Shown in pieces: positions 582-59,486 of a stretch of DNA of 64,000 bases. A model generated the notes under the pieces. The model saw only the letters and a program-made list of their open reading frames with translations, did not search any database and was not told the origin of the DNA. Every line of letters begins with the position of its first letter. Position 1 is the stretch's first letter. This DNA is from Octopus vulgaris (taxonomy: Eukaryota): contig OX597824.1 of the NCBI GenBank assembly GCA_951406725.2, forward strand, positions 90,334,001 to 90,398,000, read 5' to 3'. A program made the translations under genes and the position numbers.

Positions 582-616
582 GTTTTCGACGAAGAGTTCC
601 GCTCGAAACGTTAAAC
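582..616 (+). ncRNA. Degenerate minimal hammerhead motif (family of 27568)
   Basis: GUUU-UCGACGA-A-GAGU(ucc)GCUC-GAA-ACGU-U-AAAC; core positions 3 and 4 mutated. Confidence 0.5.
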
Positions 617-774
617 CCTCCTTCTTTCCTGAGCGTCCAACAATACTATATCTGTTCCACGTCCTCGCGTTGTTGTGTTTTATATATATGCTTTCTTGTT
701 TGGATTAACTAACTATATATATATATATATATATATATATATATATATATATATATATATATATATATGTATGT

Positions 775-1020
775 ATATGCTGTTGTGTCTGGGGAGAGTC
801 ATTCTCTTTTAATACCTTATAATTTAACACACACACCGGTAATATTTCCACTCATTTATTTATTTATTTTTCTATGGAAATTGAGAGGGAAATTTTACCG
901 GTGAGTGTGTTAAATTATAAGGCACTAAAAGTGAATGACTCTCCCCAGACACAACAGAATATGCTTCAACACACGAACTCAAATAAAGAATCTTGCAAAC
1001 CAAATCCAAAAACGAAATAT
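775..1020. repeat. Inverted pair of a repeat family also present at ~16080-16250 and ~17790-17885
   Basis: TGTTGTGTCTGGGGAGAGTCATT...ACCGGTAA versus TTACCGGT...AATGACTCTCCCCAGACACAACA. Confidence 0.8.
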
Positions 1021-1916
1021 TTATGTGTATATCTATCTATCTATCTATCTATCTATCTATCTATCTATCTATCTATCTATCTATCTATCTATCTATCTAT
1101 CTATCTATCTATCTATCTATCTATCTATCTATCTATCTATCTATCTATCTATCTATCTATCTATCTATCTATAATGCAAACAGGAAAAATAGAACTCAAA
1201 TTATGAGTATATGTATATATACTTTTAATATTTGGCAAAAACTAACGGAGTTTCTCAAGGACCGAGAGTTTCGTGCGTTCGAATTTTTCACACACATAAG
1301 CATAACAACAGATATGTGATCGCCCCACACGAAAAATGCATATTTTGAGAAGAAATCGACCAGAGATGCATTTGGAATGATATGTATTGGGATTAGGATT
1401 ATATTAGAATTTGTTAAGAGGGTGGAATGAATAATTTATGCACCTACTCAGAACGTATGAGGAAATAAAGTCGAGTTGTGTGAATTATTCGATCCCAATA
1501 TAAAGTTTGCTTTCCATTTTTTGTTTTTCTCATCAAATTCCGACATAATATTTATCAACGCCATGTGGAACATATTTGTTACTTGTAGAAGATTTTTATT
1601 AAAAAAAACAAACAATATATCTAGTTTTCAGAATGCTATGAGGAAACAAATTCGAGAGGGGGGGGAACGTCTAAATTTATGCCTATATACATAAATGCTG
1701 GTTTAAATGATGTAACAGTTTTGCTAAACAAAATTGTGGCATCATCTGATGTCAGGGTACCTACATAACTGTACCCTCACCACCACCTCTGACTAATTAA
1801 GTCAAAACTTGGATATCTTGCTGTGAGATTTTCAGATGATTTCGTTTACGATTAAATCGGAATTTAAAGAGCGGGAACCCCCCCCCCCCCGAAAAACATT
1901 GGTTGTTGTTCACATA

Positions 1917-2427
1917 CCGTAAATCCTCGAGTATAATCCGCATTTTTTCCCCAAAATTTAACTGTCAAAATCCCTAGTGCGTACTATATATGAGGTTAAA
2001 AATGAAAGTTATTTTCTAAGCAATGTCCGAGTCTCTATTTGCTGTCCGGCAATATTTATTCAGACGCATTTTGTGATGTCGGGCGCGAAAATACCTTAAG
2101 CTAAGCCTGAAAGCAATGAAGTCATAAAAGAATCATCCATAACTTGCAGTAAGCAACATTTATTAAACGTTATTACTGTTATTTCTTTATTTTCTGCAAA
2201 CAAAATGCACAAAACATCTACACGTTTGCATTATGTTATATATACAATAATAATAAAGGACGTTACTGTATACATTTTTACAAACCAAGGACGTTATATA
2301 GATCTCCTTGACTCAAGTTAGAGAAAGGGTGCGTATTATGCACAAGGTTTAGGTTTTTCAGAGGTACAGCCCCCTAAAATCCCCTGCGTATTAAACTCAA
2401 GGGCGGACTATACTCGAGGATTTACAG
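1917..2427. mobile_element. pogo/Tigger-like MITE copy 1
   Basis: TA TSD; TIR CCGTAAATCCTCGAGTATA; opposite orientation to copies 2 and 3. Confidence 0.9.
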
Positions 2428-4044
2428 TAAGCAGAATGACACACCACATTCAAATGTAATGTCAGTCATATCAAATTCTGATGTAATCGGAATGTACAGT
2501 ATCTGAGAAGTATTTGTAGAAAATTTCAATAGAAAATACCTCTTTTTTTCTGTAAGTTAGGAGGAAATAAAGTCGATTCGTGTGAATTATCCTACAATCC
2601 ATCCTGAAAAGTTTTTAACAACAATTTCCGTAATAACCCAAATGTGCCGCCTAAAATGTATCTACGGAAAACTTTTTGAAGCATATCCATTTTTTCAAAA
2701 TGTTATGAGGAAACAAAGTCGGAGAGGGGGGATACATCTGTAGTTTATATATACATATAATCCTTTCTGCTATAGGCACAAAGCCAGGAATTTGTATGGG
2801 ATAGCCGATTACATCGACGCCAGTGTTTCACTGGTTCTTAATTCATCGACCCCGAAAGAATGAAATGCAAAGTCGGCCTCGGCGGAATTTGAACTCAGAA
2901 CGTAGCGACGAGCGAAATACCGCTAAGCATTCCGTCCAGCGGGCTAACGATTATGCCTGCATACATGTATGTATGTATGTATGTCTTTTACTCTTTTACT
3001 TGATTCAGTCATTTGACTGTGTCCATGCTGGAGCACCGCCTTTAGTCGAGCAAACCGACCCCAGGACTTATTCTTTGTAAGCCACTGTAAATAATATTCT
3101 AATATTCTTGTTGAAGAATAACACACACACACACTATATACACGCATATATACCTACACACACATTGTATTTATGTGTGTGTGTAAAATGATACATGTAT
3201 GAAATATATCTACGTGTGTCCCAAATATATTGCATTATTTTTGCTACGTCAACAGTCTTACGCCAACGACGCAAAATCTTTTGAATTATATGGATGGATA
3301 TATTTGGAATAAGTTTTCCATTTTTCTTTGAGAGAAAACTGACTTTCGATAAATGTGCTGTTATCGTTGATGTCACCATTTAATAATTAAAAGACTTTTG
3401 ATTATAATTTTTTTTATCTAATTGTCGTTGGTTTAGCGGCCGCAAAAGAATATCTACGTTTTCTTTTAGACTTCGTGAAGCAAATGTTAGTTTCTTTGCG
3501 GATTGTGAAAGAGTTATGTATTAAAAATAAAATTTCTATGCACGTATCTTGTAATTTAAAGTCTGAAATTAAAAATGTATAATTGGGAAACGAGTCCGAC
3601 TCACTTGTGGATGTGTGGATGTATGGGTGCGCGAAGGTATCAAAACACGAGTGTTTTTTTTAAATGCGAAGTTTCTTGTTTTGGGCCAAGGCCAACAATT
3701 TCGAGAGAAAAGAGAGGTCGATTACATCGCTCCCAGAGTTTATTTCTATAGTGTCCCGTAAAGATGAACGGTAAAGTTGTCCTTCACAGAATTTGGACCA
3801 AGAATGTAAGGAAGGACCATATACCGCTGAGCATTTTGTTAACGTTGCCTTATATGCTTATGTCTATATTATAGCGGAGAATGTCATTAGATTGAAAAAA
3901 ACAATGCACGTGTGCACGTATATATATATATCTATGAATGTATTCGTGCTTATATACACATTATTATACATAGACGCACATATATTCACTCACATGCACA
4001 CACACGAATATTTCCACACATCTCTATCAAACTATATATACATA

Positions 4045-57401: not shown

Positions 57402-58006
57402 AGGCGGTGAGCTGGCAGAAACGTAAGCACGCCGGGCGAAATTCGTAGCGGTGTTTCGTCTGCCGTTACGTTCTGAGTTCAAATTCCGTCGAGGTCGACT
57501 TTGCCTTTCATCCTTTCGGGGTCGATTAAATAAGTACTAGTTACGCACTGGGGTCGATATAATCGACTTAATCCGTTTGTCTGTCCTTGTTTGTCCCTTC
57601 TGTGTTTAGCCCCTTGTGGGTAGTAAAGAAATAGGTATTTCGTCTACCGCTACGTTCTGAGATCAAATTCTGCCGAGGTCGACTTTGCATTTCATCCTCT
57701 CGGGGTTGATAAATTAAGTATCAGTTGTGTACTGGGGTCGATCTAATCGACTGGTTCCCTCCCCAAAAATTTCGGGTCTTGTGCCTAGATTAGAAAAGAA
57801 TATTTTAAGGCGGAGAGCTGGGAGAAACCTTAGCACATCGGGTGAAATGCTTAGCGCTATTTCGCCTCCCTACGTTCTGAGTTCAAATTCCGCGCAGGTC
57901 GACTTTGCCTTTCATCCTCTCGTGGTCGATAAATTAAGTACCAGTTGCGTACTGGGGTCGATTGGCTCCTTCCTCAAAATTTCGGGCCTTGTGCCTAGAA
58001 TAGAAA
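57402..58006 (+). mobile_element. SINE family A multimer/cluster
   Basis: GGCGGTGAGCTGGCAGAAACG head, body, second body with an alternative tail, then another head and body. Confidence 0.88.
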
Positions 58007-58569
58007 ATAATTTAGATCACTTCTAAAGAGGGAATTTGTATCATAGCACCAGAAGCGGTCTCAGACTGACTGGTTTAAGGAAGCTGGCTTGATAACTTGT
58101 TTCAAGAAGGAAATTTCATATTGTTCATCTCCATGCTAGAATTAATAGTCAAATCACCCCCTCGAGTCATCTTCAGTTATAAACTTTAAATTTTGAAGGA
58201 CATACTGGAATTAATGAAATACAGATGAGATGATCACGGCTGGAACATCATTGAGATCCTTGATGTTGATCTACTTGATCGGGATTGACCTGCAGTTTCG
58301 CTCCTCCCCTCCTCCTCCTCTTCTTCTTCTTCTCCCTTCTCCTCTCATGCACACACACACACACACACACACACACACACACACACACACACACACACAC
58401 ACACACATACACACACACACACACACACACGTGACTGACGTCAGAAGCACCGTATTGGTTCGCTACTAAATAACTAACCAATATAATAGTTTGTTGCGAC
58501 CACGAAATTTAATTGTTGCAGTAATGAACTTATTTCTCACTTCAACGTCTTCGGCCATTTTTAATAAAT

Positions 58570-59200
58570 GGACATGTTTTTTGTTGATTATGATGGTGAT
58601 GATACCGTTGTTGTTATTGTTGCTACTGTTGTTGTTGTTGTTGGTGGTGGTATTATAGATGATGACGTCGGCGATGACGGTGAGAACATCAACAGCGAAG
58701 ACGACAATGATGATGATGATGCAGAAGAGGAAGTGAATGTGGATGATGATGATGAAGACGACGACGACGACGATGATGATGATGATGATGATGATAAGAA
58801 GAATGAACGTAATGTCGATGCTGAAGATGATGAGGATTACGTTGATGGCGATAAAGATGACAATGATAATGACGACGATGATGACGATGATGATAATGAC
58901 GATGATGACGATGATGACGATGATGACGATGATGACGATGATGATGACGATGATGATGATGATGATGACGACGATGATGACGATGACGAGGATGATGACG
59001 ATGATGATAATGACGATGATGATGATGATGACGATGATGACGATGATGATGATGATGATGACGATGATGTTGATGACCATAATGATGATGAAGATGACGT
59101 CGATGACGACGACAACGACGATGATGATGATGATGATGATGACGATGACGTTGATGATGATGATGATGACAACGACGATGATGATGATGATGAGGACGAA
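58570..59200. repeat. (GAT/GAC)n trinucleotide tract
   Basis: Directly visible. Confidence 0.95.
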
Positions 59201-59441
59201 GACATACATCTAGAGCATCACAAACACAAATATAATTATGGTAGTTATTATATACATCCTCTAGAGGCGGAGATAATTTTAATAAATAAAGAATGATGTT
59301 CAAATACTTACCACTGGACTCCATGAGTTATTTCTCTTGGCTCAATTTGTTTTCAAATTATGCAAATTACTTAAGTCATAAATTTACTCTTTGTTTTTGA
59401 ATATGTCTGAATCCCTCATCACTGGAGACAAATTTGGACGA

Positions 59442-59486
59442 TTGTGGAGCTGATGACGCTTATTGAGCTAGAAACACATTCCCATG
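59442..59486 (+). ncRNA. Decayed hammerhead motif
   Basis: UUGUGGAG-CUGAUGA-C-GCU(uauug)AGC-UA-GAA-ACACAU-U-CCCAUGA. ACACAU is what CpG decay of ACGCGU would give. Confidence 0.4.

Follow-up and report, generated by a model that had tools for sequence, protein, structure and literature searches.

Hammerhead-bearing insertions in a 64-kb stretch of the Octopus vulgaris genome are probably truncated ends of Penelope-like elements

The window analysed here is a microsatellite-rich stretch of 64,000 nucleotides (C11:90334001-90398000) of the 2.80-Gb Octopus vulgaris assembly in 227 contigs, and it carries many sites with the fold of the hammerhead ribozyme (HHR). The new analysis indicates that these sites are very probably minimal type-I HHRs in the 3' end-repeats of about a dozen families of Penelope-like elements (PLEs), present as short, 5'-truncated and often head-to-head insertions that PLE enzymes encoded elsewhere in the genome are likely to have made. 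In total, the window holds 18 insertions of 12 families, designated A to L. Families A and B represent the 3' ends, truncated on their 5' side, of PLEs that code for protein, and family D is a non-coding, 360-nt tandem retrozyme.

The element class itself is already published (PMC4209133; bioRxiv 10.64898/2026.07.22.740005), and the octopus elements add new families to it, among which family L stands out by an odd core variant (A6U). No report of these families was found among the papers listed in a literature search whose reach excluded supplements, Repbase and Dfam.

Hammerhead motifs and their coding parents

A first-pass annotation of this DNA had described HHR motifs in the window, and they exceed chance. 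A strict type-I descriptor (CUGANGA, stem II, GAA, palindromic stem III, UH, stem I) finds four of them, with cores at 27572 (+), 29808 (-), 39361 (+) and 42880 (+), compared with 0.075 on average among 40 dinucleotide shuffles of 1-kb blocks, none of which gave more than 1. The genome was searched with the DNA of ten sites and of the hairpin at 42665, with up to 40 candidates scored and 14-30 loci read per family; family L emerged from sampled DNA. All 16 sites on the earlier list fall in multi-copy, dispersed, HHR-bearing families. The hammerhead family was absent from the best 150 of 498 matches in an Rfam scan of the window, a list swamped by microsatellite-driven microRNA matches. Candidate motifs at 53296, 17025, 18296 and 39877 had no HHR family behind them and were set aside.

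For families A and B, an open reading frame (ORF) with reverse transcriptase (RT) and GIY-YIG endonuclease was found upstream of the HHR-bearing end, in copies that are broken where seen. Specifically, one of the 30 B loci extends far upstream into RT-thumb and endonuclease sequence that matches a domain family of animal proteins. As a query, this part returned 2577 genome candidates, and all eight loci fetched by their B-type endonuclease tail continue into the B 3' region, seven of them reaching the tRNA-like segment and six the HHR region. At one family A locus (L228), the endonuclease C-terminus is followed by a CA-rich untranslated region (UTR) of 2,128 nt and then by the HHR, and more than 900 nt of this UTR are common to three of five further A copies. 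The endonuclease tail of the A parent has 502 candidates; both loci fetched upstream of the tail encode RT or thumb sequence, a CX4CX2C linker and GIY-YIG, and one of them the RT motif YIDD. Read from translations, the A parent has the Neptune-type CX2-5CxxC linker between RT and C-terminal GIY-YIG, and the broken copies of the B parent show a C-terminal GIY-YIG with no linker visible; the clade labels Neptune and Penelope/Poseidon are assigned by motif, not by tree. The elements had been described as non-coding and non-autonomous, which stands for family D and probably for family I, but not for A and B with their upstream PLE endonuclease-coding sequence.

Between the endonuclease stop and the HHR, family B has a tRNA-like stretch followed by (AAT)n (for example, 12010-12090 on the minus strand and 30000-30050 on the plus strand). 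The likeness is judged by eye, and the stretch may be a captured head of a tRNA-derived short interspersed element (SINE) acting as a promoter. ARAGORN found no tRNA in the window, and in three B loci no Rfam tRNA match fell on the segment, the only such match being a different stretch outside it. Apparent links of A and of E to a PLE through its pseudo-long terminal repeats (pLTRs), in L080 and L136, respectively, were rejected because the insertions are separate: a (TA)n tract divides them in one case and unrelated DNA in the other.

The enzyme had been placed outside the window, and this was borne out: tblastn with 14 PLE peptides gave no match in the window, and intact enzymes were found elsewhere. 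A genome search for GIY-YIG returned 6136 candidates, and among 150 scored, 16 lie in open frames of 781 aa. The six such loci that were fetched encode RT and GIY-YIG, four of them being mutually 98-99.5% identical, and in two copies the pLTRs of about 500 bp are 99.8-100% identical. This young PLE has a Neptune-type CX2-5CxxC linker, read from translations, and at its 3' end an HHR whose core is of the U3-A8 type and whose palindrome measures 6 nt (15/15 contexts), the same design as in the window families. Mobilisation by a PLE RT/GIY-YIG enzyme is supported as likely.

A second, upstream frame of 479 aa overlaps the RT frame of the young PLE (L273, 567-2003; L276, 580-2016); it has no clear Pfam family and is unusual, as PLEs are described as single-ORF elements. 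Other PLE lineages (3' regions of L278, L279, L282, L283, L284, L286, L290 and L371) show HHR-like motifs by eye, with core variants that include U4C, an additional base in the core and, possibly, an A3-U8 pair.

Insertions in the window

The insertions are listed below by position in the window; several coordinates are approximate, and a dot marks entries given without a strand.

1..143 (+): family L copy; the HHR is worn, with its core at 22-28 and the A6U that marks the family
503..711 (+): family A copy, from the 3' end of a Neptune-type PLE, with an HHR at 582-616; (TA)n at the end
780..1014 (+): family G head-to-head insertion with a hairpin at 780-957; most of the HHR is truncated
1174..1290 (-): family H copy
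11895..12090 (-): family B copy, from the 3' end of a Poseidon-type PLE, with a tRNA-like segment, an (AAT)n tract and, at about 11910-11955, a worn HHR
16079..16250 (-): family G copy; U3-A8 core in the HHR at about 16205-16243
17780..17890 (.): family G short head-to-head insertion without HHR
19310..19614 (.): family E head-to-head insertion; each arm is cut or carries a deletion within the HHR; the tail is on the left arm; family core G3-C8
27483..27610 (+): family A copy with a strict HHR at 27568-27602
29714..30262 (.): family B head-to-head insertion; HHRs 29769-29812 (-, strict) and 30150-30193 (+); only the right arm tailed
39210..39478 (+): family C copy; strict HHR 39356-39442; long stem II, 8-nt palindrome
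42520..42790 (.): family I (relative of D) head-to-head insertion; HHR truncated away
42874..43080 (+): family C copy, tailed; strict HHR 42875-42960
44082..44279 (-): family J copy; short inversion 44211-44279; 3' half of the HHR on both arms
45126..45320 (+): family H head-to-head insertion; family HHR with U3-A8 core and non-palindromic 4-bp stem III
45418..45800 (.): family F head-to-head insertion; cut within stem III; the tail is on the right arm
53764..54207 (.): head-to-head insertion of family D, the non-coding 360-nt retrozyme; relative to the predicted cut site, its ends lie at +183 and +228
59384..59611 (+): copy of the old family K; the HHR, at about 59444-59486, is worn

Three of these insertions, at 780-1014, 1174-1290 and 17780-17890, were absent from the earlier list, and several of its entries change in detail. 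Of its nine 'full' HHR sites, four pass the strict descriptor, whereas five (582, 11911, 16205, 30150 and 59442) are worn copies of families with a full HHR in other copies. The core CUGANGA does not apply at 582 (UCGACGA) or at 16205 (U3-A8 core), the motif at 11911 has lost G8 and one further base, stem I is broken at 30150, and the palindrome is eroded at 59442. Among seven proposed remnants, those at 22, 19460-19530, 44231, 45214 and 53947 are true pieces of HHRs, but two had been misread: the ACUAGU at 45528 lies on the antisense strand, the family F HHR with its 8-nt palindrome being on the opposite one, and the family I HHR sits farther upstream than 42665 and is missing from the window copy. 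To call the families unrelated was also too strong, given that A and L share stems II and III (79-86% matches) and that D and I share their body (by eye), so that L counts as the relative of A and I as that of D.

Anatomy of the insertions

An inverted copy lies upstream at 22 of 30 B loci and 8 of 30 C loci, and inverted, 5'-truncated copies also occur in families D, E, F, G, H and I. By inspection, flanks are (TA)n in A, C and D, and AT-rich without being microsatellite in B. Family L resembles A in the rarity of head-to-head insertions among the genome matches listed, which in both families may reflect a different enzyme.

Family D resolves the anatomy further. Across 25 mapped loci (five overlapping ones having been dropped), the outer ends fall at +183 or at +222 to +228 from the predicted cut site, except for one short inverted piece. 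All 15 plain head-to-head insertions have one end of each kind (P = 0.0003; the atypical L094 and L114 set aside), and the centres of the hairpins differ between copies while the 3' ends are fixed. The D arms exceed the unit length and cross the predicted cut site, which implies an uncut multimer or a circle as the template. Snap-back copying of the first complementary DNA was rejected as a general source of inverted arms, as in L093 and L107 neither arm contains the other.

The pattern extends beyond family D. In an automatic count over eight families, from which nine overlapping or duplicated loci were dropped, 75 of 79 inverted insertions have one tailed and one untailed end, although this pooled table is biased by its use of best-match loci and of several queries that contain the tail. 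The within-family tests of tail discordance (P = 0.0009 in B, 0.002 in D and 0.005 in E) matter because the queries often forced the type of the central arm. Tails are about 30-100 nt long. One tail per insertion is a near-strict rule in these data. We infer that the two strands are primed at different sites, in the simplest case on a single RNA.

Retrozyme-like families and genome-wide abundance

Family D forms tandem arrays of up to four units with one HHR per unit, and its top matches are 97-100% identical; the family is young. Family I, with a repeat unit of about 290 nt that includes an HHR, is probably a non-coding tandem retrozyme as well. A and B do not form such a non-coding tandem unit with one HHR each, but continue into coding sequence. 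No colinear PLE ORF was found within about 1.5 kb of the best-match copies of C, E, F, G, H, J and K. In two family C loci (L395, L396), the AT-rich upstream region has an internal duplication of about 250 nt. The D monomer had no RNA record among the sources listed. Contigs of three runs from one study with a guessed RNA type cover this monomer and join its end to its start, an observation that was not used, because tandem DNA copies give the same join and the contigs show no RNA ends.

Abundance was estimated from 80 evenly placed 10-kb stretches (800 kb) with a descriptor tolerant of core variants. Sixteen motifs occur in 10 of the 80 stretches, versus 0-1 in each of five shuffles for the three core classes seen. 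Scaled to the genome, this corresponds to about 56,000 intact motifs, with a Poisson interval (32,000-91,000) that is too narrow because motif matches cluster. Scaled BLAST counts, with wide intervals, give about 77,000 copies for L, 45,000 for A and 24,000 for G, and 7,000-14,000 each for B, C, E, F and H. Family D has no match in the 800-kb sample and 67 exact 31-mer matches genome-wide. With 15,529 exact 28-mer copies that carry U6, family L is among the most abundant repeats in the genome. Summed, the sampling estimates reach about 200,000 copies, which makes these families a notable share of the repeat landscape. The random sample also revealed at least five more HHR families that are not in the window (L192, L209, L216, L228, L254), several of them as opposite-strand pairs.

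Variation in the hammerhead core

The pair between core positions 3 and 8 is C-G in families A, B, C, F, J, K and L, U-A in G, H and the young PLE, and G-C in E, a covariation that argues for selection on the fold. Helix III is a palindrome of 4-8 nt in A-G, J, K and L, a non-palindromic 4-bp stem in H, and uncertain in I. The invariant part of the core (U4, A6 and the G8 partner) is intact except in three families. In A, U4C accounts for 7,519 exact matches versus 2,632 canonical ones (74%). In D, all 24 exact matches and 17 of 19 fuzzy ones have G8A, which leaves positions 3 and 8 mismatched (C3-A8). In L, position 6 is U in 15,529 exact-pattern matches (96%), A in 175, and C or G in 412; by these counts, the copies with A6 look like later point mutations. 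Automatic core counts for C and K were dominated by false matches and were replaced by separate readings. U4C is tolerated in a viroid, and changes at position 6 give low activity (PMC3088659); A6U in L would be expected to weaken self-cleavage.

Among 41 copies of family L, 38 have U at position 6, N7 is split 18/10/8/5 among the four bases, and H17 is split 29/7/5 and never G. N7 and H17, positions that are free in the HHR, are the only motif positions that vary widely, the core being otherwise kept. Their states travel with flanking subfamily marks (by eye), and all five copies with G at N7 have U at H17. The pattern suggests continued constraint on the core, drift in a few master copies being the alternative.

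Proposed mechanism and alternative explanations

The available data are compatible with a model in which a PLE protein, probably a dimer, would nick both strands of AT-rich or (TA)n DNA. Reverse transcription would then start at two internal RNA sites, 30-100 nt apart and downstream of the HHR, and the use of one start site per strand, probably on one RNA, would yield a head-to-head insertion that is tailed on one arm only. With its palindrome, stem III would allow dimeric cleavage by two HHRs, probably to trim or circularise long transcripts, and efficient cleavage would probably be unneeded for insertion. Lunse et al., in RNA Biol in 2017, are said to have described small PLE-associated HHR variants with a diminished stem III that cleave as dimers.

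Precedent for much of this model comes from Poseidon PAc of the green anole, where the tail lies between two adjacent internal RT start sites, both strands are extended, and the HHR is dispensable for insertion and protein-assisted in vitro (PMC11167929). The same study saw no strand difference in the start site, and the coupling of both primings on one RNA is therefore our own proposal. Several further points weigh against the PLE account, besides this one and the bias of the pooled tail table. Four of the 79 inverted insertions are concordant (three tail-tail and one short-short), and inversions are rare in family A (2 of 30 loci), unlike in B, D, E, G and H. Family A is tied to its ORF through one continuous locus and overlapping UTR copies. 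Upstream, family C continues for 900 nt or more and neither reaches an ORF nor closes a circle, and altogether eight families (C, E, F, G, H, J, K and L) are linked to neither an ORF nor a closed monomer. The search for autonomous PLEs that share the termini of the window families yielded the coding parents of A and B, but the young intact PLE has no colinear DNA similarity to any window family. Predicted minimum-energy folds of single copies often miss the active fold, and single-copy folding energies were uninformative.

Could all the families instead be non-coding, non-autonomous retrozymes that spread via small circular RNAs? The tandem 360-nt monomer of D, with an HHR per unit and arms longer than one unit, and the HHR-bearing unit of I would fit this explanation, as would the shortness of most copies in every family. 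Short copies are, however, expected from 5' truncation, the upstream sequence of C closes no circle, and for A and B the retrozyme reading is refuted by their continuation into endonuclease-coding sequence, which leaves it improbable for the set as a whole. Chance motifs in AT-rich DNA, or the hairpins of DNA transposons similar to miniature inverted-repeat transposable elements, might be suspected where window sites form long hairpins, as several do, and where five of nine 'full' sites fail the strict descriptor. This explanation is extremely improbable, given the enrichment over shuffles in window and random sample alike, hairpin centres that vary by copy while 3' ends stay fixed, and the links to RT/GIY-YIG ORFs.

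A closer competitor accepts the PLE origin and regards the HHRs as mostly inactive passengers, with mobility depending on the protein-binding and priming region only. It draws on the core changes in L, in A and in the young family D, on the low activity of position-6 variants (PMC3088659) and on HHR mutants that insert normally in vitro (PMC11167929). The covariation of the 3-8 pair, the restriction of wide variation in L to N7 and H17, and stems and palindromes that are rebuilt in every lineage speak against it, and we consider it rather unlikely. For family L, the PLE account can tentatively be taken one step further, to a version that is possible but falls clearly short of an even chance: a fold under selection with fixed U6 that, taken with the near-strict rule of one tail per insertion, would point to priming of both target strands by a PLE dimer, at two neighbouring sites on a single RNA, and to an HHR that would serve as a handle and not as a cutter.

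Relation to known systems

Minimal hammerheads in the pLTRs of metazoan PLEs are known as solo truncated copies and opposite-strand pairs with weak dimer cleavage (PMC4209133). The octopus motifs resemble them in their short helix I, the unpaired base between positions 9 and 10.1, the palindromic helix III and the U3-A8 variant, as well as in thousands of solo copies from truncated PLEs and in opposite-strand pairs 100-700 bp apart. They differ in that G3-C8, U4C, G8A and A6U are fixed in amplified families, and the available text of that paper names no cephalopod. With Poseidon PAc (PMC11167929) they share AT-rich targets and, probably, two RT start sites that delimit the tail as well as cleavage and extension of both strands; there, however, the HHR overlaps the start of the ORF, whereas here tails measure about 30-100 nt and the two ends of an insertion use different sites.

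Non-LTR (long terminal repeat) retrozymes have been described as pLTR derivatives (PMC7229834; bioRxiv 10.64898/2026.07.22.740005). Family D matches them in its PLE-type insertion structure and in tandem copies of a non-coding 360-nt unit, each with one type-I HHR, and departs from them in the C3-A8 mismatch of its core; A and B are not retrozymes. The 2026 survey covers 31 vertebrates, three insects and one anthozoan, with no mollusc among them (bioRxiv 10.64898/2026.07.22.740005). In PLE insertions, the tail is often at one end only (PMC8557442), and the octopus elements agree with the Neptune and Penelope/Poseidon clades of that account in the C-terminal GIY-YIG, the inverted 5'-truncated copy, the one-end tail and the (TA)n bias; the Neptune linker recurs in the A parent and in the young family. 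Differences are the lack of the linker in the B parent, the tRNA-like stretch in its 3' region, and the extra 479-aa upstream frame of the young family. Cephalopod repeat surveys list Penelope, with no mention of ribozymes in the available text (PMC8967140).

Other features of the window

14979-15749 (+): SH2 domain and SOCS box (Pfam 1e-11 and 3e-10) in a frame of 256 aa; exon of a SOCS/CIS-like host gene
21305-21862 and 22931-23486: two inverted arrays of three units of about 185 nt each, a common SINE-like repeat
32067-32378 (-): 103-aa frame with no Pfam match, which we take to resemble the end of ORF2 of a long interspersed element (LINE)
50087-50671 (-): DDE_3 transposase fragment between inverted repeats at 49750-49990 and 51399-51637; remnant of a Tc1-like DNA transposon
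63274-64000: 30-nt minisatellite that continues past the end of the window

Significance

PLE hammerheads are conserved, yet weak and dispensable in vitro. Families that have been amplified to thousands of copies with U4C, A6U, G8A, U3-A8 and G3-C8 cores, beside canonical ones, constitute natural experiments on their role. In addition, a young intact PLE and a young 360-nt retrozyme occur in one genome and could be assayed together, and the coupled tail pattern offers a countable constraint on how PLEs build inverted insertions. If the proposal for family L is true, its HHR would be a ribozyme that tolerates A6U with the assistance of protein, or else a fold without catalysis that is read by the PLE protein.

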